A stretch of 40,000 bases of DNA from Paenibacillus sp. FSL R10-2734 (GTDB lineage Bacteria; Bacillota; Bacilli; Paenibacillales; Paenibacillaceae): assembly GCF_037963865.1 (NCBI RefSeq), contig NZ_CP150170.1, forward strand, positions 6,317,760 to 6,357,759. Reading direction: 5' to 3'. A program made the translations under genes and the position numbers. Each line of letters begins with the position of its first letter. Positions within the stretch are counted from its first letter, which is position 1. The notes beneath the pieces were generated by a model. That model worked only from the letters and a program-made list of their open reading frames with translations, searched no databases and was not told the origin of the DNA. Positions 4,355-15,918 of the stretch are shown piece after piece.

Positions 4355-5410
4355 ATGAAAAGAATTATTGTTTCAATCTTCATGTCACTCGTTTTATTGT
4401 TGATGCCTGTACTTGCTGAGGCACACCCAGGACGTACAGATGGAGATGGCGGTCATTATTGCCGCACAAATTGCGCAAAGTGGGGACTGGAAGACGGAGA
4501 ATACCATTACCACAATGGTGGAAGTTCAGATTCAAAACCGACTGCCACTGCTAAACCAGCTGTTAAACCTACCGCGAAACCAACACCAAAGCCTACTGCT
4601 ACACCAGCTCCAACTTTGCTTTTACCAAAGAAACAAAACGTTGGCACTCTTCAGGTTTACTTTTTCGATGTTGGTCAAGGTGACTCTACCTTAATCCGGA
4701 CTCCGAATAATCAATATGTACTCATTGACGGAGGTGATAACACTCAGGGTAAAAACGTAGTAAAGTATCTGAACGCTCTTGGTGTAAAGACACTTGATGC
4801 CATGGTAGCAACTCATCCTGACGCGGATCATATTGGCGGTCTTGACGATGTTTTAAAGGCTGTAGACGTTAAATCTGTATATGCCCCAAAGGTTTCCCAC
4901 ACGACGGATACATATAAAGACTTTCTAACTGCAGTCAAAAATGAAGGTCGTACAATAAAAAGTGTGACAAAAGGGGGTACCATTCCCCTATCTGGTATAG
5001 AAGCAAACTTTCTGGCCCCCATCAATACTTACGGCGATGATTTGAATAATTGGAGTGCAGTCCTGAAGATCACTTACAAAAACAACTCCTTCTTATTCAC
5101 TGGAGATGCTGAGCTCAAATCTGAAAATGATATGCTTGCAGATGGTCTGGCTCTTAAAGCAGATGTTCTAAAGGTCGGCCATCATGGATCCAATAGTTCA
5201 ACCAGCAAAGCATTTCTTAATGCCGTTAAACCACAGTACTCATTAATAAGCGTAGGTAAAAACAATTATGGACATCCAGATTCCGGAATACTTACAAGGT
5301 TAAAAAATGCAGATACTTCTATTTTACGAACTGATCAAAAAGGTACAATTACTGCTATTAGTGATGGAAGTAAAATATCCTTTACGACAACTAAGGGGGC
5401 TTCTAAATGA
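4355..5410 (+). CDS. Secreted YHYH-domain / ComEC-type metallo-beta-lactamase-fold hydrolase (putative extracellular nuclease)
   Basis: Signal peptide ending LAEA/HP, then GGHYC...EYHYH and a KPT/PTA-rich linker. MBL motifs are DVGQGDS, THPDADHIGG, GDAE, VGHHGS and YGHP. Confidence 0.8.
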   Translation: MKRIIVSIFMSLVLLLMPVLAEAHPGRTDGDGGHYCRTNCAKWGLEDGEYHYHNGGSSDSKPTATAKPAVKPTAKPTPKPTATPAPTLLLPKKQNVGTLQVYFFDVGQGDSTLIRTPNNQYVLIDGGDNTQGKNVVKYLNALGVKTLDAMVATHPDADHIGGLDDVLKAVDVKSVYAPKVSHTTDTYKDFLTAVKNEGRTIKSVTKGGTIPLSGIEANFLAPINTYGDDLNNWSAVLKITYKNNSFLFTGDAELKSENDMLADGLALKADVLKVGHHGSNSSTSKAFLNAVKPQYSLISVGKNNYGHPDSGILTRLKNADTSILRTDQKGTITAISDGSKISFTTTKGASK

Positions 5411-6324: not shown

Positions 6325-7059
6325 TTAATAAATAGTATACGAGCTATTTTTATTATACGTACCGTCGGTTGGCGCGTCAACGTATGGATATTCTGCCCAT
6401 GGTAAAAATATAGTGTTCTCTCCATAGCTTGTATTATAACTCGTGTATTTTGATGCCCCACCTGTTGCTCTGATCTGTCTAATAACATCAGCGGTCATTA
6501 GATCATCCATTATCGATGCTAGACCATACCAACCAATTAAGTGACTTATAACTGGGTATTTACTAGACAAAAGATAACTCACAAAAACTGTTGTTACATC
6601 TGACCACGTAGCTAACTTGCCATTTTGATAATTTTGAATTAATGATGAGGTTACAGTTGGCGCGTTTAGTTGCTCCCTAAGAGTCCCTGCATACAGGCTA
6701 CCAGAATACACTTGCGTGAAGGTTTCCCCTCCCCTAGGCATGCGAACATTTTTAGATCGAGCGCTGAAGTTATTAACATTTTCCGAATAACTATTTTCTA
6801 TATAATCATAAAATACCTGATAAACCTCTTCAGAAGCGTTTTGAGCATCCAGTTGTTCTTTAGCGATTTCTTTAAGTGCAGAGATTCCTTCCTCGTCACT
6901 CATTCTATTACGTTGATTATTCTCCTCTGCTTTTTTTACATCAATATCCCACCAACTTTCAGTATTGGTAGTTTGACTCTCGGACGCAAAAACTGGTACG
7001 ACTTGGAATATTAGTGCGAAAACAAGTAAAAATGATAATACTTTTTTCAATTTAAACAT
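6325..7059 (-). CDS. Secreted hypothetical protein
   Basis: Signal peptide MFKLKKVLSFLLVFALIFQVVPVFA/SES. 244 aa with no recognisable domain. Confidence 0.6.
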   Translation of the reverse strand: MFKLKKVLSFLLVFALIFQVVPVFASESQTTNTESWWDIDVKKAEENNQRNRMSDEEGISALKEIAKEQLDAQNASEEVYQVFYDYIENSYSENVNNFSARSKNVRMPRGGETFTQVYSGSLYAGTLREQLNAPTVTSSLIQNYQNGKLATWSDVTTVFVSYLLSSKYPVISHLIGWYGLASIMDDLMTADVIRQIRATGGASKYTSYNTSYGENTIFLPWAEYPYVDAPTDGTYNKNSSYTIY

Positions 7060-7271
7060 CCTCTCTTTTTTTTAAAAATACTAGTAAAATATACTATAAT
7101 ATGGATTATTTTGATGTAGTATTAAAATACTATTTAAATTACAAAATCTATCAAATTACGACAAATATTATATTTTAAATTTTAATATATCGACATAAAA
7201 AAACAAAATAAATAACAAAATAATTCCATTTTTTTGTTTAAAACCATACAAAATTGATAAGATTGAAACAG

Positions 7272-7310
7272 AAAAAAACCTGTCAGCCAATAAGGTCGAC
7301 AGGTTTTTGT
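7272..7310 (-). terminator. Bidirectional hairpin terminator
   Basis: AACCTGTC...GACAGGTT flanked by an A-run and a T-run. Confidence 0.65.
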
Positions 7311-7319
7311 TATAAATAC

Positions 7320-7535
7320 TTATGCCAAAATCATCCTAAATTCAAATTCATTTCTCATGTAATAAGCATCGGCAACCTTAACGCTACAAGGACTCCATTT
7401 CTGGACTGGACCTCCACAATCAATTATGCAGCCAGCTAGATCACCACGGCGTTCAAGTATATCCACTTCAGACTGTGACAAAGCAGCAGTTAGAAATTCA
7501 GAGTCTGACTTGATGACTTTGTATACATTACTCAA
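7320..7535 (-). CDS. Small hypothetical protein A (71 aa), paralog of 8896-9090
   Basis: TTG start preceded by GGAGTGAT, the same RBS context as paralog B. Shared pattern YKV(I/L)(K/R)SD..F...AL..S.V...II..GG.V. The N-terminal extension of the 114-aa track ORF crosses a terminator-like hairpin. Confidence 0.5.
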   Translation of the reverse strand: MSNVYKVIKSDSEFLTAALSQSEVDILERRGDLAGCIIDCGGPVQKWSPCSVKVADAYYMRNEFEFRMILA

Positions 7536-7550
7536 TACGATCACTCCTAT

Positions 7551-7581
7551 GCAATAAAATACCCTACCGATATTGGCAGGG
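7551..7581 (-). terminator. Copy of the CCCUGCC/GGURGGG hairpin plus U-rich tail
   Basis: Minus strand CCCTGCC-AATATC-GGTAGGG then TATTTTATTGC. Related to the hairpins at 9887-9906, 10856-10875 and 14208-14228. Confidence 0.45.
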
Positions 7582-7746
7582 TACGGTGCTTCCGTATAAC
7601 TGTAATATAAACTACTCTCCACTTTATGTATGTGACAAATAAGGATATTATTATATTTTCTCATTATTTATCCATTATTCTCCGATAATAAAGATTGGAC
7701 ACCATATATCAACCTTAAAGAAAATTGTGAGGAGAGAAATAGATCC

Positions 7747-8829
7747 ATGCTGAATGCTGAACCTTTGCAGTCAATAATTAAATGTCTTACGATTACGCTT
7801 GAAATCTCAATAATATTTTTTCTGATTTTTTTCCCAACCATTAACCGTTTACCTGTATTCAGAGTTCTTTTCCGAATCGGACATCGTATAACAACCATGA
7901 TGCTACCTGTATCTTTACCACTATTTTTTGTATATGTGTTTACTATCTCCGGTATCATGATTGCCTCAAAATTTTCAAGTTTACCTTTCAATTCCTTTTT
8001 ATTGGCATTTTCATTATCCACGAAAATCTTTTTGTACACACTTTTCCCAGCCCTGATTATTCATCTAACTTGCTTATTAATAATGTCTATCCTTAAATCA
8101 ACGCATAAAATTCAATACGAACGTTTTGGAATTCTATCTCAATGGGGAACAAAGACAAGAGCTTATAAGAGAGCTATCAATTGGGTACCCGTTGTTTCAG
8201 AAAAACTACTGCCTGTATTAAAATCCTTAACAACGAATAGACCTACCTTAAATATTCTTGCTCCGGCAGCCAATGATGGAACAGAAGAATTAGACCTGGC
8301 CCAATCTTTTTCCCAACTGACTCAACGCAAAATTCGTATGCAAACCAGTGACGCTTCACCTATGAAACACCAAAAAACTTTGAATACTCCAACTGTTGAA
8401 TTCACTTATGAACAGTGTGATGCTTTTGAGCTTCCAAATAAGATTAAAGAATTACAAGATATAATTTATGACCCTAAAGGCATCCTTTGGTTTACATTCG
8501 GTAAGGACAAAAAGTTACTGCCTGCTCTCCAACTCTTTTATAATCTACTCACACACGATGGCATTGTAATTATAGATGCTCCAGATGAACAGAAAAGAAA
8601 TCAGAAAAAAAATCGCCATCGCCTTTATTTTGGAATGAAGCTACGGTATTATTGTGAGTCATCCACCTATACTCATATTGAAAAGGCCTTTAAACCGGGC
8701 TCTGCAGCAAGTAAATTGTTTACCTTAGAAAAAGTCGATGGACTATCCGGACCTTACGGAATGGTGATACTTCGAAAAGTTCCAGCTGATACTTTAAATC
8801 AGAGAAAAAAAGAAGAGAACGTAGGATAA
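7747..8829 (+). CDS. Hypothetical protein: N-terminal hydrophobic region plus C-terminal Rossmann/class-I methyltransferase-like domain (weak)
   Basis: RBS GAGGAGAG lies about 10 nt upstream of the ATG at 7747. The C-terminal half has MTase-like strand pattern (LNILAPAANDGTEE, MQTSDAS, CDAFELP, LLTHDGIVIID) but a degenerate motif I. The N-terminal part overlaps an antisense ORF. Confidence 0.4.
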   Translation: MLNAEPLQSIIKCLTITLEISIIFFLIFFPTINRLPVFRVLFRIGHRITTMMLPVSLPLFFVYVFTISGIMIASKFSSLPFNSFLLAFSLSTKIFLYTLFPALIIHLTCLLIMSILKSTHKIQYERFGILSQWGTKTRAYKRAINWVPVVSEKLLPVLKSLTTNRPTLNILAPAANDGTEELDLAQSFSQLTQRKIRMQTSDASPMKHQKTLNTPTVEFTYEQCDAFELPNKIKELQDIIYDPKGILWFTFGKDKKLLPALQLFYNLLTHDGIVIIDAPDEQKRNQKKNRHRLYFGMKLRYYCESSTYTHIEKAFKPGSAASKLFTLEKVDGLSGPYGMVILRKVPADTLNQRKKEENVG

Positions 8830-8843
8830 TACATAAGAGAAAG

Positions 8844-8886
8844 AATAGCTCATCTTCCATTTAGGTTGATGAGTTATTTTATATTT
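8844..8886 (+). terminator. Hairpin terminator between convergent genes
   Basis: AATAGCTCATC / GATGAGTTATT (one G:U pair) followed by a TTTT-rich tail. Confidence 0.55.
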
Positions 8887-8895
8887 GCTCTGAAT

Positions 8896-9090
8896 TCAAA
8901 ACACTAGGACAAAGTTTAAACCAGAAAGCCTGATGGATTCAGGAGTAAATTCTTCTACAAGACCTCCATAATTAATTATGTGGTCTATCTGATCCGGACC
9001 AAGCCTAAACCAGACAGACACCTTGGATTTCGCTAGGGCGGACACGAAGAAATCATTGTCACTCCGTAAAACTTTATATGTAGTGTTCAA
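8896..9090 (-). CDS. Small hypothetical protein B (64 aa), translationally coupled to the 4-TM gene
   Basis: The upstream gene ends ...GCG GAG TGA, then TAC, then the TTG start. GGAGTG serves as the RBS. Confidence 0.55.
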   Translation of the reverse strand: MNTTYKVLRSDNDFFVSALAKSKVSVWFRLGPDQIDHIINYGGLVEEFTPESIRLSGLNFVLVF

Positions 9091-9094
9091 AGTA

Positions 9095-9766
9095 TCACTC
9101 CGCCTGAATTTTTTCTTTACTTTCTACTATACTAACCTTTTCTTCTGCATTAATAACCTTCTTCGCCGTGTCAACAATTTTTGTAAAAAACGCAAATATA
9201 AACTCGGAGCTGTATCCTGCCGCAAAAATAATTGCATTGATTTTTGAAATCCCTACTATTGTATCGTCTTCAATTTTAACGAGACTAATAAAAACAATTG
9301 GGAATAAAAAAACCAATAGAAAACGAATATTAAAGCTTTCATACTCATTTTTCAAAGCCAGCGCTTTGGAGAACATATAAGAGAATGTACCAAACAATGC
9401 GATGAATGCAAAATAAAGAAACTGATAAACACTGAACAAAAAAGGTTGATTTAACTTAGATAAATCCTCAGTCAAGTTAGCTATTAAGATTGAAAATACT
9501 CCTAAAATGACGATGCCCCAAATTCCTCGTTGTAATATTTTTTCTTCATTTTTTTCGGGATGGTTTACCAATTTCTTTTCTAATACTATTATTTCGTATT
9601 TAATATCTACAAGTTGTGAAAGACTTGGTTCCTTTAAGATCAGTCTTTTTTCAATTTTTTTGCATCTTTTAGTTAGCGAAGATGGAAGTTCAGAATTCGA
9701 GGTTAAGTACTTTCCTCTTATGCGCTCTATCTCTTCAATAAGCATTTGCTGGGTTAATTGTGTCAT
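9095..9766 (-). CDS. Membrane protein: about 85-aa N-terminal helical/coiled-coil region plus 4 TM helices (possible pore/effector)
   Basis: Charged helical N-terminus (MTQLTQQMLIEEIERIRGKY...). TM segments: GIWGIVILGVFSILIANL, FLFSVYQFLYFAFIALFGTFSYMF, IRFLLVFLFPIVFISLV, INAIIFAAGYSSEFIFAFF. Confidence 0.6.
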   Translation of the reverse strand: MTQLTQQMLIEEIERIRGKYLTSNSELPSSLTKRCKKIEKRLILKEPSLSQLVDIKYEIIVLEKKLVNHPEKNEEKILQRGIWGIVILGVFSILIANLTEDLSKLNQPFLFSVYQFLYFAFIALFGTFSYMFSKALALKNEYESFNIRFLLVFLFPIVFISLVKIEDDTIVGISKINAIIFAAGYSSEFIFAFFTKIVDTAKKVINAEEKVSIVESKEKIQAE

Positions 9767-9816
9767 TAATTCCTGCCAACCACCTTATATTTAATTAGGT
9801 AATAGATCAAATATAG

Positions 9817-9906
9817 TTCATTTGGAACATTATGTATATGCACTCTATATCTCTGGTAAGGAAGATTTCCTGAAAGCAAAGAAATGCCCCACCATTGTTG
9901 GCAGGG
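9817..9906 (-). promoter_or_regulatory. Terminator-hairpin plus leader/promoter cassette, copy 1 (upstream of the 4-TM gene)
   Basis: About 90 bp similar to 10784-10875, including the 35-nt near-identical core TTCATTTGGAACATTATGTATATG(C/T)ACTCTATATC. Contains a CATAAT -10-like box on the minus strand (rc of 9829-9834). Confidence 0.5.
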
Positions 9907-9943
9907 CACGGTGCTCCAGTGCTCATGAATTTCAAAGTTCAAA

Positions 9944-10732
9944 TTAGATTTTATTTAATCTACGAGTTATTGCTTCTATTAACAAGGCCAATTCATTATC
10001 CTTTCCAAAGGCATGGCTATATGCTGAGAGAACGTGACTCCCTTTCATACGTTCCTTTCTAATAGCATGTAATACATATCCAGCTGTTACTGTAGTGCCC
10101 TCTATTGTAAAAGCAAAATTGCGATTGATATCATCTAATTCAGGGTACGTATCTTTCTCTGATTCAATGCTACGTAACAAGTTATCAGGAATAGCACTTC
10201 TTTCGATGGCTAATCGATCTAACAGCATTCTTTTTTCTCCGTTTGTCACATCCAATTTCTTTCTTACTTCTTCTAGCTCTCTCATTAATAATTCTGCTTC
10301 TTTACGACTGATAGTTGGTTCAGTTACATTTGAAGGTACTTCGTCTAATCTATCCATTAATAACTTCAATCCATGTTTATAACTCTCCTTACTTGTAAAA
10401 TCAGCATATAATTTTCCCTTTAAGAATCCAGGAAGTTCTACACTCTCTAACATTATAGGTAGCACTTTCACTACTTTTCCTTCGATTTCTTGGTTCATAG
10501 CAATATCAACTTCTCGTTTGACCCATTCGGAATTAATTGAGTTTTTCGATAATACTACTCCCACAAACATAACTTTATCTATGCCTTCTCTTATTTTTGT
10601 TATAAGAGAATCCCCTATTTTTATTTCTGCTTCATCAACCCAAACGTAATACCCTTTCCTTTGCAAATCTTTTGCTAATTTTCGAACGAACGGTTTATCA
10701 TTAGAGTTATGACTTAAAAAAATACTACTCAT
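9944..10732 (-). CDS. TIR-domain protein (N-terminal TIR, coiled-coil linker, unknown about 100-aa C-terminal domain)
   Basis: SSIFLSHNSNDKPFVRKLAKDLQRKGYYVWVDEAEIKIGDSL...VVLSKNSINSEWVKREVDIA has the TIR signature with a W-x3-E putative catalytic Glu. RBS AGAAGAGGGA lies 8 nt before the ATG at 10732; the track start at 10768 lies in the leader cassette. Confidence 0.85.
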   Translation of the reverse strand: MSSIFLSHNSNDKPFVRKLAKDLQRKGYYVWVDEAEIKIGDSLITKIREGIDKVMFVGVVLSKNSINSEWVKREVDIAMNQEIEGKVVKVLPIMLESVELPGFLKGKLYADFTSKESYKHGLKLLMDRLDEVPSNVTEPTISRKEAELLMRELEEVRKKLDVTNGEKRMLLDRLAIERSAIPDNLLRSIESEKDTYPELDDINRNFAFTIEGTTVTAGYVLHAIRKERMKGSHVLSAYSHAFGKDNELALLIEAITRRLNKI

Positions 10733-10783
10733 TTTACACGTCCCTCTTCTATTTGATGTAAAAAACAAGTAAAAATAGTATAT

Positions 10784-10875
10784 TTCATTTGGAACATTAT
10801 GTATATGTACTCTATATCACTTGAAAGAAAATTTTCACGGAACGCAAAGAAATACCCCACCATTGCAGGTAGGGG
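10784..10875 (-). promoter_or_regulatory. Terminator-hairpin plus leader/promoter cassette, copy 2 (upstream of the TIR gene)
   Basis: Repeat of 9817-9906. Minus strand has TTCAAG (rc of 10820-10825), N18, CATAAT (rc of 10796-10801). Hairpin CCCTACC-TGCAAT-GGTGGGG followed by TATTTCTTTGC. Confidence 0.5.
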
Positions 10876-10894
10876 TGAAGTTTGCTTATATAAG

Positions 10895-11452
10895 TTAGTG
10901 TTTATATAAATTGCAATTCTCATCATTTTCCATAATAACATTTAAAAAAATATCCGCAGGTAAGCCAGACTTTTTCATTTTAATAAGATTAGCTTCGTGT
11001 TCATTTACTCCATGAACAGTTACTCTCCCGACTGCTTTTCCCTTCGATAAATAAACATTCAAATCAATTTGATCTTTTGATAGAAACGGGAATGATTTCG
11101 ACCATAAAATAACTTCATTACTTTTAGTGTTAATTTCGTAAATGGATTTTTTTGTATTGTTGGAATTAACAAGAACTTTAATACCAAAATAAAACAAAAT
11201 TATCAAAGGTATTAAAATTACAGATAAAATAAAACCTGATAATTCCGATTTTGTGGTTAGGAAGAAATAAAAAATCCCTGTTACAAGAGACAAGAAAGCC
11301 CAGACAACAAGCGCTAACTGAAAAGTGATGGAAATTGCCTCAGCTTTATTAAAAATTGTTGAAGCCTTCCAAGTCTTTGCTCTGTAGAGAAGAAAGGTGA
11401 ATGTAAAAATGAAAAATAATAATGCCATTTGTACTATTATTATTGTTTTCAT
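10895..11452 (-). CDS. Membrane protein (3-4 N-terminal TM helices plus about 75-aa soluble C-terminal domain)
   Basis: RBS AAGGAGGT in the 24-nt gap after the lipase gene. TM segments: IIIVQMALLFFIFTFTFLL, ISITFQLALVVWAFLSLVTGIFYFFL, GFILSVILIPLIILFYFGI. Confidence 0.6.
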   Translation of the reverse strand: MKTIIIVQMALLFFIFTFTFLLYRAKTWKASTIFNKAEAISITFQLALVVWAFLSLVTGIFYFFLTTKSELSGFILSVILIPLIILFYFGIKVLVNSNNTKKSIYEINTKSNEVILWSKSFPFLSKDQIDLNVYLSKGKAVGRVTVHGVNEHEANLIKMKKSGLPADIFLNVIMENDENCNLYKH

Positions 11453-11476
11453 CTTTTCACATAACCTCCTTATCAG

Positions 11477-14071
11477 CTATTCTTCATCGTCCTTCATTAT
11501 AAGCGTTATTTCACGTAGTGCTGGACTAGTGTTTTTGACATCAGTAATTACTAGTCTAAATTTATGTTGTTTAAAGATCTCATCAACAACAAATTTCCCA
11601 TAATAAATCCCGTCTTTCTCAACCAAATCTCTCACTAATATATCTGGGGTCCTATTTCTAAAAGCTTTTAGTCTAACTGCAGGTGAAGTATTTGTAATCG
11701 TTTCTTTACTTCTTTCAGTGAGAAGTTGAAAAGAAAAATTGCACGTTTGTCCAACCTCTAGTACTTCTGTTGGTGCACCCTCAAAATAAAGTGAGTATTT
11801 TTCTGCGTAACGAGCCTCAATTTCAATAAGTTCCGATTTAAAAGATACGCCTTTAACGTTGTCTGGAACGACTGTACCAGTAGTGACTTTGGAGCCTTTT
11901 ACATCAATAAAACTAATGCTAAAATCTCCAAGCCCTATAGAATCATGTTTAAATATATTACCCCAAATCAGATCTGGCGTTATCGCTGATGTTGTTTCTT
12001 CCCACATTAATATCGGAATGTTACCCAAACTTAATTTAAGACTTTTGATTTCCTCTGTTTTTCCGAATTCATTTTCGGAATAGTAATCCAATTTCACGAA
12101 TGAATTGATGTCATTCAATAATTCTGTTATTGGAACAGTTACCTCTTCACCTTGGGATACCTCCTGAAATTCCTGATCACCTAAACGGTAAAACGTTTTT
12201 GAAGCACCGCCCAGTGAAATACTGTCAAAAATCAAAATGATGCCTTCTGGGTTAATATTGATATTTATTTTGGTCTTTGGATTATTATTATCGATAGTAA
12301 AAGTATAGTCCTTTGCCAACAGTGAACGATTATAAATATCTTTCCCAAAAGCTTTAATTTTATGAATTCCGGAATCAAGTACAAGTTCTTCAGCTTGAGC
12401 ATATTTCTTCGGAACTCCATCATCTACTGTATAATAAATATTTTCGACGAGTTCATTATTATCTGCAGTTATTTTCATTACAACTACGCCAGAAAAAAGA
12501 GGTCTGTACTTGATTCGCTCATTCCCTTGAACCTTTATTGTCAACTTAGGAACTGCATCTGTATTAGCAGTAATTAATTGCTTTGTGTAACTCCGCTTTT
12601 TAGAATTGTATTGCACATCATCGACAGTTAAATCTGCATCCTTAATATCACGAGATAATGGTATGCGTACAGTTGCAGCAATCTCATCCGATACCGGAAT
12701 AGGATCAAAACTTTGCTCTATGACCTCATCACCATCAAAATATTTAACTGAAACATCGGCAACACCAGTGTCATAAGAATTTATTTTTATAATAATATCT
12801 TCGTCTACCTTTTCAGAAAAGAAAATATACTTTGCTTCACCAACATTAAAATACATTATGGAATCGCCTTTGGCTAACGGACTAATTTCTTCAACGCTCG
12901 TATCGAACACTCCTGCAATATATTTATGCTGCGAATCCATAACTGTTGAATCCACAGGACAAAGAACTTTTGCTAAAACTTTCCGATTAAATACGTCAGT
13001 AAAAGGTTCAGTATTAATATGTTGCGGTAATACATTAACCTTTCCGTTAATTGACCAATCAATAAAATTCAAGACATAATCTAAATTTGTTAAATTTTTA
13101 TGTTCACCTTTGCAATAGTAAACATTTGCTTGATGACATGGAATACTACTCATTAATGGGACTACGCCATCTCCATTATCAAATTCACAGTCTCTCTTGA
13201 AGGGCAATCTTTTTTTGTCAGTTGTAAATGGAATTTTGTATATTGTCGGGACTTCGCATCCAATCAAACAGTCATGATCTATATAATCAGGTAAGGGTAA
13301 TTGAATAATTTCTTGGACAGGTTTCATGATATCATTCCATATATTAGGTGCAGAAGCATTGATTCCGTTGGCATCAAAAAACTGTTTGTTATACAATGAC
13401 TGTACCTTTAAAAGCATTTCTTCGTATGTAACCTCTTGTTCTTCCCCTACCAAAAATTTACCTTGCTCTAATTTATCATAATAGTGTTTACTCGGAAGCA
13501 ATTGGTATACAGAGGGTAATTGTGCAGCTAGTAAACGTGTTTTCTTATCATCAAACATTTGTAAAACTTGCGAAAAATTGCTGAATAGACCTGGTTCACC
13601 AAACACTAGGCTTTTGTAAGCATCGGGAGAACCGTGCCAAGGAGTACCCAAAGTAATAAATTTTGTTACTTTGTTATGTAATCCTAGAGAATCTAATTCG
13701 TGTATCGCCATTTTTGATAGTATACCACCCATACTATGAGCTACTAAAACAATCGATTCGTGATTTTGGCTTTCGTTTACAATTCTCCTTGTTAATTGAT
13801 CAACTATATCGAGAAGTGATTGTCTCCAATCATACGCAAAAAACGCAAAATTTTCAGGGGAATAGTGTTCCAGTATACCTTTATAAATTTCTGCTTTATA
13901 AAATCCAAATGCATTTACAATATTCAAAATCCCCTTTGCCTCAAGAGGATTATTAATATTTAATGCATTAAAATCATCTAGGTTTTTTGGAAACCACCGT
14001 TTATTATCTCCCTCGAACAGCTCACTACCTTTGATGCCTGGCACAAATAAAATGAATGGTTGCACTTCCAC
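11477..14071 (-). CDS. 864-aa LCAT/PGAP1-like alpha/beta-hydrolase (lipase/phospholipase-acyltransferase) fused to about 450 aa of beta-sandwich repeats; no signal peptide
   Basis: GTG start with RBS AGGAGG. Motifs: YDWR (aa 80-83), nucleophile elbow AHSMGG (Ser113, nt about 13726-13743), LGTPWHGSPDA, DNGDGVVP, GEHKNL. The C-terminal half contains IYYTVDDG.. and TFYRLGDQ.. Ig/chitobiase-C-like repeats. Confidence 0.75.
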   Translation of the reverse strand: MEVQPFILFVPGIKGSELFEGDNKRWFPKNLDDFNALNINNPLEAKGILNIVNAFGFYKAEIYKGILEHYSPENFAFFAYDWRQSLLDIVDQLTRRIVNESQNHESIVLVAHSMGGILSKMAIHELDSLGLHNKVTKFITLGTPWHGSPDAYKSLVFGEPGLFSNFSQVLQMFDDKKTRLLAAQLPSVYQLLPSKHYYDKLEQGKFLVGEEQEVTYEEMLLKVQSLYNKQFFDANGINASAPNIWNDIMKPVQEIIQLPLPDYIDHDCLIGCEVPTIYKIPFTTDKKRLPFKRDCEFDNGDGVVPLMSSIPCHQANVYYCKGEHKNLTNLDYVLNFIDWSINGKVNVLPQHINTEPFTDVFNRKVLAKVLCPVDSTVMDSQHKYIAGVFDTSVEEISPLAKGDSIMYFNVGEAKYIFFSEKVDEDIIIKINSYDTGVADVSVKYFDGDEVIEQSFDPIPVSDEIAATVRIPLSRDIKDADLTVDDVQYNSKKRSYTKQLITANTDAVPKLTIKVQGNERIKYRPLFSGVVVMKITADNNELVENIYYTVDDGVPKKYAQAEELVLDSGIHKIKAFGKDIYNRSLLAKDYTFTIDNNNPKTKINININPEGIILIFDSISLGGASKTFYRLGDQEFQEVSQGEEVTVPITELLNDINSFVKLDYYSENEFGKTEEIKSLKLSLGNIPILMWEETTSAITPDLIWGNIFKHDSIGLGDFSISFIDVKGSKVTTGTVVPDNVKGVSFKSELIEIEARYAEKYSLYFEGAPTEVLEVGQTCNFSFQLLTERSKETITNTSPAVRLKAFRNRTPDILVRDLVEKDGIYYGKFVVDEIFKQHKFRLVITDVKNTSPALREITLIMKDDEE

Positions 14072-14200
14072 AATAAGCCTCCTAAATTTTCCATATTAAA
14101 TATTCTCTATAATTCGCCATATTACATCAATTCCCTTCTTTTTGATATATACGTTTACCATATGCGTTGTTAAAAACACCAAACTGAGCAAGTCAACAAA

Positions 14201-14228: not shown

Positions 14229-14393
14229 TCCATATCTTTATCACCAGGGAGTTATGTGATTACTATAATCCTCTTAGCTTAAATAAGTATGAAACCATTT
14301 GCTAAATTTTTATTATTGAAACCGATCAAACAAAGTAACGTATCAATCTTAATTTCCAAGTTACTACATATACAAAATGGAGGTGTGTATAAA

Positions 14394-14609
14394 ATGAAGT
14401 TGTTCAGTCTATTGCTTGTAGCATTATCTGCCATTGTAGTAGTTGCCACATTCGGATTTTCAACATTCAGCGTAGTCACAGGTATAGTAGGAGGGCTTAT
14501 TGCAGCATTTGCGATTGCAGGCTACTTGCAGTCTGTCAGACGTGATTATCCACTTAAGGGCTATGAGAACAAACAAGTTAAGTATCAATCGAACTATAAT
14601 ACGTGGTAA
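14394..14609 (+). CDS. 71-aa two-TM membrane protein, opposite orientation to all neighbours
   Basis: RBS GGAGGTG lies 8 nt upstream of the ATG at 14394. MKLFSLLLVALSAIVVVATFGFSTFSVVTGIVGGLIAAFAIAGYL then a polar tail. The N-terminal extension of the track ORF lacks an RBS. Confidence 0.55.
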   Translation: MKLFSLLLVALSAIVVVATFGFSTFSVVTGIVGGLIAAFAIAGYLQSVRRDYPLKGYENKQVKYQSNYNTW

Positions 14610-14611
14610 GC

Positions 14612-14645
14612 AAAAGCCCCGCCATAAACTGGTGGGGCTTTTCAT
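14612..14645. terminator. Bidirectional terminator shared by 14394-14609 and the endolysin gene
   Basis: AAAAGCCCCGCCA-TAAAC-TGGTGGGGCTTTT. Confidence 0.8.
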
Positions 14646-14664: not shown

Positions 14665-15399
14665 TTACTTTGTGATATTAACAGTCTTTGTTTCTGCGTC
14701 ATATACAACCGTAGCTCCTAGAGCCTCCGCTACAGCTCGCGCAGGTGTAAAGGTTGAGCCATTATCAATCACTCCATCAGCTACCTTCTTGCCGTTTACG
14801 TTGACTGTCACTGTTACATCTTTATTCACTGATGCCGCCTCCTTCTTTTTCAGCCCTAGGTACTTTGCAATCCCGGTCACGTGACCATCAATGATTGCTT
14901 GGATAACCACATCTTTTTTGAGTTTGGCAGCGTCGGTTGCCACATCCAAAAACAAATTTTCTGTCAGTACTGCTGGCATTTTACTCTCTCGCACCATGTG
15001 CAGGTTTTTTGCCTTTTGTCCCCGGTCGATCACGCCAACAGCAACCTTATTGAGCATGTACATAATCTCCTTGTGTAGGACGTTTTGTAGTGCTGGCGAT
15101 GCGGCTGAGGCTTTTGTATATCTAAAGGTTTCAAAGCCACCAGAGCCGCCACCAGCGTTACAGTGGATGGACACTAGGAGATCAGCGCCCGCTTTGTTAG
15201 CTAGATCCGTGCGCTCCTTTAATTCCAGAAACACATCTGAACTACGGGATAGTAACACCTGAACTCCATCATAATTTGTCTCAAGTCTCTTTTTAATCTC
15301 CAAAGCCACTGGCAGTGCGATGTCTTTCTCTTTCAAACCATTTACAACTGCTCCTGGATCCTTACCACCATGCCCTGCGTCGATCCATACCTTCTTCAT
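14665..15399 (-). CDS. Endolysin: N-acetylmuramoyl-L-alanine amidase (Amidase_3) with C-terminal copper-amine-oxidase-N-like wall-binding domain
   Basis: MKKVWIDAGHGGKDPGAV...SIHCNAGGG...TENLFLD matches Amidase_3. The C-terminus VNGKKVADGVIDNGSTFTPARAVAEALGATVVYDAETKTVNI matches the wall-binding domain. Last gene of the lysis cassette. Confidence 0.85.
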   Translation of the reverse strand: MKKVWIDAGHGGKDPGAVVNGLKEKDIALPVALEIKKRLETNYDGVQVLLSRSSDVFLELKERTDLANKAGADLLVSIHCNAGGGSGGFETFRYTKASAASPALQNVLHKEIMYMLNKVAVGVIDRGQKAKNLHMVRESKMPAVLTENLFLDVATDAAKLKKDVVIQAIIDGHVTGIAKYLGLKKKEAASVNKDVTVTVNVNGKKVADGVIDNGSTFTPARAVAEALGATVVYDAETKTVNITK

Positions 15400-15665
15400 T
15401 ATTCTTCACCACTTTTCTTTGCTTGCTTGACCAGTTGGTTACCATATACAGCCACAGCACCACACAAGATACCCTGTATAAAGCTTGTAATAACAAACCC
15501 TAACATCAGTACAGCAAATACGATGGCCACCAGCGTAACAATGTACACAATACTCCAGTCCGGTACTTTTGGCGTTTGTTTTAACCAATAACCGATGATC
15601 CAACAAGCTACGACAACAACCAATAATTCAGGATTAATAAACTCCATAACTGCATTCCATTCCAT
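15399..15665 (-). CDS. Phage holin (A118 Hol118-like, 3 TM)
   Basis: MEWNAVMEFINPELLVVVVACWIIGYWLKQTPKVPDWSIVYIVTLVAIVFAV...charged tail. RBS GGAAGGTGG lies 8 nt before the ATG at 15665; the track GTG at 15677 is too close to the RBS. TAATG overlap with the amidase gene. Confidence 0.75.
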   Translation of the reverse strand: MEWNAVMEFINPELLVVVVACWIIGYWLKQTPKVPDWSIVYIVTLVAIVFAVLMLGFVITSFIQGILCGAVAVYGNQLVKQAKKSGEE

Positions 15666-15666
15666 A

Positions 15667-15918
15667 TTAATTTCCACCTTCCATAGTAAATTTTATGATT
15701 GCCAATATAACGGCTCCGACTATAGTGGTCCCTAACCAAAAGATTGTTTTGTCGATTTTGTCTAATCTGTGGTGGGCTGACCTTGCAGAAGATAATGCCT
15801 CTACAGCTGTTTCGTTGGCCGTAATCGCACGATCTAATTTTTTATCCATTTCATTTACTTTCGTTTCTACTCTCGTTATCCGTTGCAAAACCTCGGATTG
15901 TTCCATGCCCATCCCCAT
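15667..15918 (-). CDS. xhlA: XhlA-like lysis-associated membrane protein
   Basis: Coiled-coil (RITRVETKVNEMDKKLDRAI...HHRLDKIDK) plus C-terminal TM segment. Sits upstream of the holin as in PBSX. Confidence 0.75.
   Translation of the reverse strand: MGMGMEQSEVLQRITRVETKVNEMDKKLDRAITANETAVEALSSARSAHHRLDKIDKTIFWLGTTIVGAVILAIIKFTMEGGN

Follow-up and report, generated by a model that had tools for sequence, protein, structure and literature searches.

A probable cargo hotspot in a PBSX-like Paenibacillus prophage carries a conserved lipase–membrane protein gene pair beside a stand-alone TIR gene

Five adjacent genes in Paenibacillus sp. FSL R10-2734 most probably (at about 0.75 by our own estimate) represent a cargo ('moron') hotspot of a PBSX-like prophage, in which three cassettes that move independently, each bearing a terminator and a promoter of its own, stand side by side rather than forming one five-gene system. 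As far as our searches show, earlier literature contains no description of this hotspot. The window, that is, the whole stretch of DNA analysed, covers 40 kb of the 7.3-Mb genome, so that an effector encoded elsewhere would escape this view. A preliminary description had placed five co-oriented genes in AT-rich prophage cargo beside a lysis cassette. All five ORFs were found where it had put them, on the minus strand and directly after the XhlA–holin–Amidase_3 cassette, and the setting is borne out by Pfam matches and by the GC profile, which is 0.30-0.36 at 5-14 kb and 0.42-0.48 in the structural genes. The ORFs are real genes and not chance ORFs, because homologues of all five exist elsewhere. 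The features are listed below by position in the window.

14665-15918, minus strand: prophage lysis cassette, the context of the cargo (Pfam)
15667-15918, minus strand: XhlA (Pfam, 1.3e-14)
15399-15677, minus strand: holin (Pfam Phage_holin_5_2, 2.8e-17)
14665-15399, minus strand: Amidase_3 endolysin (Pfam, 5.7e-44)
14610-14641, minus strand: terminator-like hairpin 3' of the endolysin gene (-21.5 kcal/mol, z -3.75), followed by a T-run
10824-14157, no strand assigned: DNA block of cassette 1, comprising the lipase gene, the TM185 gene, 86 nt upstream and ~70 nt downstream (blastn of the window against locus L085)
11477-14071, minus strand: LCAT/LPLA2-fold serine lipase/phospholipase, 864 aa (Pfam, AF2, Foldseek)
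10895-11452, minus strand: 3-TM partner of the lipase (TM185), 185 aa
10779-10874, minus strand: junction element copy A, a terminator-like hairpin (10855-10874) and then a promoter-like 58-nt box
9944-10732, minus strand: stand-alone TIR protein, 262 aa from the ATG (TIR_2, family alignment, AF2)
9812-9909, minus strand: junction element copy B, a strong terminator-like hairpin (9884-9909) and then a promoter-like box
9095-9766, minus strand: near-orphan membrane protein TM223, 223 aa, the cargo of a variable slot that precedes the 72-aa gene
8874-9090, minus strand: frameshifted copy of a conserved 72-aa prophage gene (protein and DNA alignments)
7320-7584, minus strand: second paralogue of the 72-aa gene (about 7320-7535) with a hairpin copy

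The five genes had been proposed to make up a single defence system, in which the TIR protein senses infection and a nucleotide signal activates the lipase and/or both membrane proteins. Their shared orientation and adjacency within the AT-rich cargo suit this proposal. It also has precedents in TIR-plus-TM systems: a P2-like phage encodes Rst_2TM_1TM_TIR (PMC9122126), and there are Thoeris types whose effectors are TM, SLATT or hydrolase proteins or predicted phospholipases (10.64898/2025.12.03.692087). However, a tblastn search of 83 loci with TIR homologues returned no match to the lipase, TM185, TM223 or the small protein, and nine other lipase loci encode neither the TIR protein nor TM223. 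The block of lipase and TM185 is also exchanged alone: it is 88% identical in DNA to a prophage locus of Paenibacillus sp. FSL P4-0081 (L085), and the similarity stops at both borders. Furthermore, TM223 occurs elsewhere without the TIR protein, and Pfam, PADLOC and NCBIfam revealed no domain for signal binding in the lipase, TM185 or TM223. Together with the predicted terminator and promoter elements between the units, these results make a single five-gene system highly improbable. Another statement about the cluster was correct: it contains no ThsA, cyclase, STING, RT or NTPase partner. No PADLOC, NCBIfam or Pfam model assigns it to a known multi-gene system. The alternative that had been offered, two or three independent mini-systems stacked in a hotspot, matches the evidence for modularity. 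TIR genes are known to exchange effectors among related loci (Yirmiya et al., bioRxiv 10.64898/2025.12.03.692087), and therefore the missing conserved synteny is no strict exclusion of local cross-talk in this genome.

The borders of the cassettes are marked by hairpins and promoter-like repeats that flank the TIR gene, all of them predicted from the nucleotide sequence by terminator and promoter scans. The hairpin of copy B is strong (-19.8 kcal/mol, z -3.55) and that of copy A weak (z -1.9); the direct repeats D1 and D2 of the two junctions are 86% identical. The window contains two copies of their 34-nt core, where 0 would be expected, and the core is also found in L085 and in two further loci, L087 and L088. 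A third hairpin copy lies at 7559-7584, before the second paralogue of the 72-aa gene (-18.2 kcal/mol, z -4.06). The 114-aa ORF listed at 7320-7664 was rejected as an over-extension running across this hairpin.

The small ORF at 8896-9090 had been described as a translationally coupled 64-aa protein. The ORF and its close start hold, with a TTG 4 nt past the TM223 stop and GGAG upstream, but the gene is not intact: the loss of 2 nt close to its 3' end exchanges the conserved C-terminal ...RERFEFRAYIK for LVF, and the ancestral stop lies at 8874-8876. It is a frameshifted member of a 72-aa family present at 15 related IMG/VR prophage loci, where the genes upstream of it belong to 10 different families, Mrr_cat and RES among them, and it is frequently preceded by the same promoter-like core; at none of the 15 loci is the upstream gene related to TM223. 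The 72-aa gene marks a variable cargo slot, bounded upstream by a conserved promoter element, in related prophages.

TM223 occupies this slot in the window. The helical N-terminus (~80 aa) and membrane character ascribed to it were found, with three to four TM segments. Only three clusters of homologues were retrieved among 5.8 billion, with no match in Pfam, PADLOC, NCBIfam or PHROGs. Within a modest sample of three contexts, a homologue with 88% identity follows HNH and a SIR2 gene (PADLOC PDC-S25, 1e-108) in L087, and another with 70% identity follows a secreted non-enzyme protein in L088. As TM223 is adjacent to the TIR gene on the same strand, the TIR protein, TM223 and the small protein might instead make up a Thoeris-like signalling unit whose effector acts in the membrane, separate from the lipase pair. 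In Thoeris, TIRs are combined with numerous unrelated TM effectors, and effectors can differ within one TIR cluster (10.64898/2025.12.03.692087), and the SIR2 preceding TM223 in L087 is another NAD+-consuming enzyme. Such a unit is nevertheless unlikely: the strong copy B hairpin and a separate promoter-like box lie between the two genes, DNA identity to L087 is confined to 8859-9840 and ends at the junction element, and none of the 83 TIR-family loci carries a TM223 relative. The variation of the gene preceding TM223 and of that preceding the small protein in related prophages also argues against it. Since the variable slot holds Mrr-nuclease, RES-domain and unknown genes in other prophages, TM223 is probably a single-gene toxic or exclusion factor, although this is a weak assignment.

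The TIR domain noted earlier, with its FLSH and W-x3-E motifs, was confirmed by a Pfam TIR_2 match (1.6e-28), the second motif reading WVKRE. E74 corresponds in the alignment to the Glu of 'NYE' in AbTir and is the candidate catalytic residue. The protein (AF2, pLDDT 84) belongs to a widespread family of ~265 aa, in which the TIR domain is joined to a private helical C-terminal domain that is found only in fusion to TIR and has no PDB match. PADLOC models PDC-S66 (9e-25) and bSEFIR (2e-13) match the TIR region, spbK being insignificant at 0.017; the ThsB-like and PDC-S66 models are matched by the TIR domain alone and by no other part of the cluster. No neighbour is conserved at the 83 homologue loci, and an all-against-all comparison of neighbours at 18 full-length family loci revealed no partner that is conserved, although additional TIR genes occasionally occur nearby. 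Family members lie beside other TIR genes at L004, L014 and L084, and the one in L007 adjoins a TIR-SLATT operon. Judging from the fold and E74, the chances are even that the protein, once activated, would consume NAD+, perhaps yielding cADPR isomers, and would need no effector encoded in cis to abort infection. The private C-terminal domain would most likely serve in sensing or oligomerisation.

The lipase and the 3-TM protein form a two-gene module that is conserved in Bacillales prophages, and this pair looks to be the sole new component of the region. In all ten contexts of a modest sample (the window, L085/L089, L086, L090-L095 and L180), a lipase homologue with 29-89% identity is followed after about 1-26 nt by an ORF of ~175-195 aa, and these ORFs align as one family; the hosts are Paenibacillus, B. 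cereus, B. safensis, Priestia and Terribacillus. In the window, the ORF coordinates agree with the spacing of 24 nt given before, and TM185, formerly assigned three to four TM segments, is a membrane protein with three. Its conserved C-terminal domain (~85 aa) is predicted to be cytoplasmic from a positive-inside charge count.

The call of an LCAT-type lipase without signal peptide was upheld by Pfam (LCAT 1.3e-13, PGAP1 4.8e-8, DUF676 2e-5) and by inspection of motifs (YDWR, AHSMGG, LGTPWHGS, GDGVVP, GEHKNL) and of hydrophobicity, which found neither a hydrophobic segment nor a signal peptide at the N-terminus. The triad S113, D301 and H324 is invariant across 27 homologues. Foldseek matched the AF2 model (pLDDT 85) to LPLA2 (4x92, E 7e-13, TMt 0.66) as well as to LCAT and Tle4, and no PADLOC model matched the lipase except LmuA at chance level (0.013). 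From fold and motifs, we infer a cytoplasmic LCAT/LPLA2-type phospholipase or acyltransferase. The C-terminal beta-sandwich region noted previously is seen in the model as Ig-like domains at residues ~360-864 (~500 aa), which in Foldseek resemble MG/Ig/FN3 arrays. An Ig-like array is an unusual feature for a cytoplasmic immune effector.

The pair is an uncharacterised candidate for an abortive-infection or a lysis-linked role, and we tentatively favour the former. In this role, the membrane partner may hold the lipase at the membrane's inner face or gate it there, and on a trigger the Ser-Asp-His triad would hydrolyse membrane phospholipid, leading to cell death or lysis. Only slightly less probable is a non-immune function, either membrane destruction at the end of the prophage lytic cycle or an exolipase or toxin freed by holin/endolysin lysis, with the TM protein as immunity or retention factor. 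In eight of the ten contexts, the pair is the first gene unit directly 3' of endolysin/holin, where the lysis enzymes vary in type (Amidase_3, Amidase_2, VanY/M15_4, GH25), and a remnant (L095) retains only XkdX-holin-amidase-lipase-partner. The lipase lacks a signal peptide yet carries domains typical of extracellular or virion-surface proteins, and its structural matches include the lipase toxin Tle4. Against this function, one pair (L094) is chromosomal among housekeeping genes, without phage or lysis genes; a predicted terminator and an opposite-strand gene lie between pair and endolysin in the window; none of the sequenced isolated phages carries the pair; and the conserved domain of TM185 is predicted to be cytoplasmic, not external. 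Gram-positive lysis is not known to require a lipase, which also counts against it. The near-constant site of the pair right 3' of the lysis genes suits a role in lysis and one in defence equally well.

The N-terminal ~400 aa of the lipase share fold and Ser-Asp-His triad with eukaryotic lysosomal phospholipase A2/LCAT and with Tle4, a PGAP1-like T6SS lipase toxin. In contrast to these, the present lipase is bacterial and predicted cytoplasmic, is fused to the Ig-like domains and has a 3-TM protein as its partner; unlike Tle4, it has no T6SS or T7SS link, and its partner is unrelated to Tli4. Rst_Hydrolase-3Tm and Kiwa likewise combine a soluble enzyme with a small multi-TM protein on a prophage or satellite hotspot, but the hydrolase of the Rst system is of the HAD-like and not the alpha/beta type (PMC9122126). 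The membrane is a likely target as for the phospholipase effectors of CBASS (CapV) and Lamassu-lipase, whereas CapV is patatin-like.

Thoeris (ThsB TIR plus effector; types I-XI, Yirmiya et al. 2025 preprint) shares with the TIR protein the ThsB-like/TIR_2 domain, the catalytic Glu and carriage on mobile elements, and some relatives of the protein lie in TIR-rich islands (L007, L014, L004); the TIR protein differs in having no conserved adjacent effector and in its private C-terminal domain. The Thoeris survey explicitly left out stand-alone TIRs (Yirmiya et al., bioRxiv 10.64898/2025.12.03.692087). The closest solved relatives of the TIR domain are the NADases AbTir, BtTir, PdTIR and BtpA (~30% identity, 1e-5 in Foldseek, 5e-21 by profile), in which the catalytic Glu is conserved but an N-terminal coiled coil precedes the TIR domain, whereas here the TIR domain precedes the helical domain. 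SpbK of ICEBs1, the PADLOC candidate PDC-S66 and bSEFIR, which are single-gene TIR abortive-infection systems, are also short lone TIRs on mobile elements, with another domain order and partner domain. The region as a whole resembles the P2/P4 defence hotspots (Rousset et al. 2022) in its conserved flanks, swappable cassettes and fixed prophage site, and in cargo comprising TIR, SIR2, nuclease and TM genes. It differs from them in phage lineage, here PBSX-like Paenibacillus prophages, and in its flanks, formed by the terminator/promoter repeat and the 72-aa gene.

All five open reading frames (ORFs) that the preliminary description had joined into one candidate TIR-lipase defence system were found on the minus strand where it had placed them, and the lysis cassette was recognized by its domain matches:

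11477-14071, minus strand: lipase, 864 aa
10895-11452, minus strand: 3-TM protein (TM185), 185 aa, starting 24 nt past the lipase gene
9944-10732, minus strand: TIR protein, 262 aa counted from ATG
9095-9766, minus strand: TM223, a protein of 223 aa with 3-4 TM segments
8896-9090, minus strand: small ORF, 64 aa, TTG start, 4 nt past the TM223 stop codon
15667-15918: XhlA, lysis cassette
15399-15677: holin, lysis cassette
14665-15399: Amidase_3, lysis cassette

The GC content of the cargo block is 0.30-0.36 vs 0.42-0.48 for the phage structural genes, and the block adjoins the lysis cassette, in agreement with the original view of AT-rich cargo beside lysis genes. The cassette is part of a PBSX-like myovirus prophage, in which sheath, XkdW and terminase genes are present. 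The TIR protein has an exact match in Paenibacillus sp. FSL R10-2734, the host of this prophage. Near-identity searches of isolated phage genomes with the DNA of 8.8-14.3 kb and 14.3-36 kb gave no match. The stretch from the endolysin terminator to the lipase promoter region also contains a small opposite-strand ORF (14289-14609, plus strand), whose product is a two-TM-like membrane protein with no family match.

The cargo block contains two copies of a ~95-nt junction element, 86% identical to each other, at 10779-10874 (copy A) and about 9812-9906 (copy B). Its 34-nt core has two matches in the window vs 0 expected. According to terminator and promoter scans, each copy consists of a terminator-like hairpin followed by a promoter-like box, and no credible RNA family in Rfam covers the element. 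The hairpins of this region are as follows:

Copy A, after the 3-TM protein gene: -12.9 kcal/mol, z -1.9
Copy B, after the TIR gene: -19.8 kcal/mol, z -3.55
7559-7584, third hairpin, before the second paralogue of a 72-aa gene family: -18.2 kcal/mol, z -4.06
14610-14641, after the endolysin gene: -21.5 kcal/mol, z -3.75

DNA similarity to L085, a prophage locus of Paenibacillus sp. FSL P4-0081, is limited to 10824-14157 (88%), which corresponds to the lipase and 3-TM genes, and that to L087, a locus of Paenibacillus sp. P32E, is limited to 8859-9840 (86%), which corresponds to TM223 and the small gene; both similarities end inside the junction element. For the TIR gene, a single DNA relative (L084) was found, and its similarity is confined to the coding region. 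The element copies and these limits of similarity indicate three separately exchanged units, so that the order is lysis cassette, lipase with the 3-TM protein, element, TIR, element, and TM223 with a frameshifted 72-aa gene. The proposal of a single five-gene system was not borne out, since neither the 83 TIR loci nor the other lipase loci share these neighbours and the genes form separate DNA units. What survives is its fallback of stacked independent units. Gene neighbourhoods likewise showed no synteny of TIR and lipase genes, the lipase being conserved with its 3-TM partner alone. The division into three cassettes matters because a 'five-gene TIR-lipase system' could mislead a naive annotation pipeline as it misled the preliminary description.

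The TIR domain call was upheld by Pfam (TIR_2, 1.6e-28; ThsB_TIR, 4.3e-6), and in PADLOC the protein matched PDC-S66 (9e-25) and ThsB1 (6e-14). Residue E74, aligned to the AbTir glutamate, is invariant across the family alignment. The structures nearest to the TIR protein (AF2 model, pLDDT 84) are BtTir, AbTir, PdTIR and BtpA, and its helical C-terminal domain had no match in the PDB. Full-length family members of ~265 aa, with 45-70% identity over 100% of the length, occur in Bacillota, Bacteroidota, Pseudomonadota and other phyla. Synteny was analyzed in 83 homologue loci with flanks of up to 10 kb, in none of which did tblastn find the lipase, TM185, TM223 or the small protein. Clustering of all neighbours in 18 full-length family loci revealed no conserved partner, and extra TIR genes were occasionally located near family members in these loci (L004, L014 and L084). 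The C-terminal domain (residues 135-262) had 13 matches among 1.8 billion representative proteins; the eight checked were TIR fusions or short proteins without a Pfam domain, and no other domain type was attached to it in these eight.

The TIR protein is described here as a new member of an already-known kind, and its family as a compact stand-alone protein with a private sensor-like domain distributed across phyla. Without an effector in cis, it would sense or oligomerize via this private domain and then consume NAD+. NAD+ consumption is the simplest model, and we put it at about even odds. Alternatively, the TIR protein may produce a signal for an effector encoded elsewhere, beyond the 40-kb window. 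Some homologues of the TIR protein with this C-terminal domain are located in TIR-rich islands (L007, L014 and L004). The one in L007 is near a type VII Thoeris-like operon of ThsB_TIR, SLATT_3-SLATT_1 and TIR_2 genes (6454-8476, minus strand). L014 harbors four TIR-domain genes (7102-11764), one of which is fused to a response regulator and a histidine-kinase ATPase, and has a ~165-aa unknown gene in common with L004 (10001-12632).

TM223 is represented by just three clusters among 5.8 billion, which makes it a near-orphan; neither TM223 nor the small protein matched Pfam, PADLOC, NCBIfam or PHROGs. Its relative in L087 (88% identical) lies past the lysis cassette behind genes for HNH and SIR2 proteins (the SIR2 protein, of 523 aa, matches PDC-S25, a PADLOC single-gene candidate, over its full length at 1e-108), and its relative in the locus L088 (70% identical) lies behind the end of a secreted protein. 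Thus, the upstream neighbour of TM223 differs in all three contexts, including the window. The HNH and SIR2 proteins of L087 (6794-9456) occupy the place equivalent to that of the window TIR gene, and so another NAD+-linked enzyme is encoded there.

The small ORF had been regarded as a small coupled protein. Its position just past TM223 stands, but it is a frameshifted copy of a 72-aa family member, which is found beside unrelated genes elsewhere; a 2-nt deletion shifts the frame and removes the conserved C-terminus. The second 72-aa paralogue of the window is located at about 7320-7535. The 114-aa ORF at 7320-7664 (minus strand) is an over-extended artefact, of which only the last ~72 codons represent the gene and the N-terminal part reads across the terminator-like hairpin at 7559-7584. 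Between the two paralogues lies a 360-aa ORF (7747-8829, plus strand) whose N-terminal part has three TM segments and whose C-terminal half is soluble; for this half, only a chance-level methyltransferase-like match was obtained (NCBIfam BC85_0335, E 0.07).

The 72-aa family is present in 15 IMG/VR prophage loci, neither TM223 nor TIR being found in any of them, and profile searches with it against PDB sequences were empty. In the 12 of these loci with an upstream ORF, the gene preceding the 72-aa gene belongs to 10 different families, which include an Mrr-type nuclease (L187) and several unknowns; in L192, a RES-domain gene overlaps the start of the 72-aa gene. A toxin-antitoxin pairing with TM223 was considered. 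The small gene is located 3′ of TM223 in three of three loci, a sample of three only; across loci, at least 10 unrelated genes precede it where it is not found by itself, and the window copy is frameshifted. The 240-aa protein preceding another 72-aa copy in L087 has no similarity to TM223. The promoter-like core of the junction element also occurs in L085, L087 and L088, before the 72-aa gene or TM223, and in the IMG/VR loci it precedes either a variable gene plus the 72-aa gene or the 72-aa gene alone.

In related Paenibacillus prophages, the conserved promoter-like core (…CATATACATAATGTTCCAAATGA…) and the 72-aa gene bracket a variable slot (L181-L195, L087, L088 and window 8874-9906), whose fillers are unrelated (Mrr_cat nuclease, RES domain, TM proteins and unknowns) and often overlap the 72-aa gene or lie ≤16 nt from it. 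TM223 is one of many alternative cargo genes of this slot, itself a new example of an already-known kind of hotspot. Its slot-mates RES and Mrr suggest by analogy that TM223 probably acts in toxicity or exclusion. For the 72-aa gene, the possible roles are those of a regulator, of a promiscuous partner or simply of a conserved flank; such a partner might serve the various unrelated toxic genes in front of it (RES, Mrr, TM proteins) as antitoxin or adaptor. Because the promoter element and the 72-aa gene mark its limits, the slot could offer a way to look for new single-gene effectors in prophages of Paenibacillus.

Among other cargo, several otherwise unrelated secreted proteins end with a conserved ~80-aa C-terminal domain (…KEYDL…AF..WY…DKH.NNKGPF..RKDYVIFDKILTFSVDEY). 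It is located at L085 15473-15721, L087 11697-11936, L086 13338-13565 and L088 136-384, and also in L091 and L001; its carriers have F5/8 type C, Kelch and Big_2 domains and PT-rich linkers, and it is absent from the window. Secreted cargo proteins of the window are a ComEC-like MBL-fold hydrolase with a YHYH motif and a PT-rich linker (4355-5410, plus strand; phrog_14556, 3.6e-89) and a 244-aa protein with a signal peptide and a weak match to the SAR2788 putative toxin (6325-7059, minus strand; 0.02).

The initial LCAT/PGAP1-like assignment of the lipase agrees with Pfam, in which residues 74-202 matched LCAT (PF02450; 1.3e-13, 51.3 bits against a gathering cut-off of 21), PGAP1 and DUF676. 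The GxSxG nucleophile S113 and the triad residues D301 and H324 are invariant in 27 family sequences. In Foldseek searches with the AF2 model (pLDDT 85), the first ~400 residues superposed on lysosomal phospholipase A2 and LCAT (4x92: E 7e-13, 400 columns, TMt 0.66) and matched the T6SS lipase toxin Tle4 more weakly, while the C-terminal remainder resembled arrays of Ig/FN3/macroglobulin-like domains. In a viral structure library, the lipase part matched only LCAT-like enzymes of eukaryotic viruses and the C-terminal part matched phage surface and tail proteins. As first proposed, the lipase has no signal peptide, nor does it have a TM segment; the family consensus begins straight at the first strand of the hydrolase fold. 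The family (~865-900 aa) is conserved end to end and almost confined to Bacillales. Judged by Pfam score, triad and fold, the protein is an LCAT/LPLA2-type alpha/beta-hydrolase with predicted phospholipase or acyltransferase activity on membrane lipid.

No match to the lipase was found by tblastn in isolated phage genomes, and a metagenome scan with the family alignment returned just distant, lipase-domain-only relatives (22-33% identity) of no use for synteny. The defence HMM library searched, PADLOC, includes no lipase of the LCAT/LPLA2 fold, and literature searches found nothing on LCAT/PGAP1-type lipases in prophage or anti-phage settings. A structural role in the virion, considered for the Ig-like arrays, was rejected: the gene is not part of the structural module, isolated phages lack it, and in L094 it is present with no phage at all.

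Ten contexts of the lipase were compared, namely the window and the following loci:

L085/L089, Paenibacillus: lipase 89% identical
L086: lipase 55% identical
L090-L092: lipase 39-42% identical
L093, B. cereus
L094, Terribacillus
L180, Priestia
L095, B. safensis: distant lipase paralogue

An ORF of ~175-195 aa is located about 1-26 nt 3′ of the lipase gene in all ten, and the products of these partner ORFs can be aligned as a single family, each having three TM helices followed by a conserved C-terminal domain; profile searches with this family against PDB sequences were empty. No relative of TIR or TM223 is present in any of the other lipase loci. The lipase and its 3-TM partner constitute an uncharacterised conserved module. 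The pair is the first unit past the endolysin/holin genes in 8 of the 10 contexts, the preceding endolysins are of unrelated types (Amidase_3, Amidase_2, VanY/M15_4 and GH25), and the prophages include both sipho- and myovirus types. L095 is a remnant holding only XkdX, holin, amidase, lipase and partner. In L092, the pair is beside DUF4145 and nucleoside-deoxyribosyltransferase-like genes, and in L094 it is flanked by the suf operon on one side and other housekeeping genes on the other, phage genes being absent. The numbers of Lys/Arg residues in ten partner sequences (2-4 in loop 1, 0-1 in loop 2 and 2-6 just past TM3) suggest that the conserved C-terminal domain is cytoplasmic, like the lipase.

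We favour the reading that the pair acts by abortive infection, with a probability of roughly 0.4. The lipase would be a gated membrane-destroying effector: its 3-TM partner would retain or regulate the cytoplasmic enzyme at the membrane until a trigger allows it to hydrolyse membrane lipids. The autonomy of the pair in L094 counts toward this reading. So do its carriage by prophages as cargo, equipped with a hairpin upstream and a conserved 86-nt leader, and its neighbours in L092. It is also possible, at somewhat less than even odds, that the pair is linked to lysis, either through membrane breakdown at that stage or by supplying an exolipase that escapes when the cell lyses, in which case the TM protein would confer immunity or retain the enzyme; the striking position first after the endolysin and the Ig-like array, commoner in extracellular proteins, speak for such a role. 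As to the abortive-infection reading in its full form, a new two-gene system of Bacillales prophages in which a membrane sensor or gate frees a cytoplasmic membrane-destroying phospholipase upon infection, we regard it as possible but less likely than not. The pair directly follows the lysis genes in many Bacillus, Paenibacillus and Priestia prophages, and would add either a new type of membrane-targeting immune effector or a new helper of phage lysis in Gram-positive hosts.

In PADLOC, NCBIfam and PHROGs, the lipase, both TM proteins and the small ORF had no significant match and the TIR domain alone was matched, so that none of the curated model sets run classifies the cluster, as had been anticipated from the sequence. 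The window TIR resembles Thoeris in being a ThsB-like TIR_2 protein with the catalytic glutamate, but the window has no conserved same-operon effector and hairpins flank the TIR gene. SIR2, SLOG, Macro, SLATT and caspase models of Pfam, PADLOC and NCBIfam had no match in the five proteins. The cluster does not qualify as Thoeris because a conserved effector is lacking. Effectors of the TM, SLATT, hydrolase and phospholipase kinds are catalogued in a recent survey of Thoeris, from which stand-alone TIRs were excluded (10.64898/2025.12.03.692087). The cluster is not CBASS, Pycsar, TIR-STING or retron-TIR either; no CD-NTase, cyclase, STING or reverse transcriptase was detected by Pfam, PADLOC or NCBIfam in any ORF of 5.8-14.7 kb, and the Retron_TIR model of NCBIfam matched the TIR part alone (76 bits vs a 600-bit cut-off). 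A link of the plant EDS1-like TIR-lipase type was rejected because the lipase is LCAT-type and TIR and lipase genes never co-occur in the other loci compared.

Rst_2TM_1TM_TIR of the P2-like phage AC1 is a conceptual parallel to the TIR and TM genes of the window; however, TM185 is tied to the lipase and TM223 occurs without TIR, and the models of this system were not among the PADLOC matches of TM185, TIR and TM223. The hydrolase of Rst_Hydrolase-3Tm is HAD-like (PMC9122126), whereas the window lipase is an alpha/beta-hydrolase of the LCAT/LPLA2 fold with no PADLOC match. Unlike the periplasmic/external immunity protein of Tle4-Tli4, the partner of the window lipase has a conserved domain predicted to be cytoplasmic, and T6SS or T7SS genes were found in none of the 10 lipase contexts. 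In its logic, the lipase pair would resemble other systems of a soluble enzyme with a small TM protein and, if immune, would be a new form of membrane-targeting defence.
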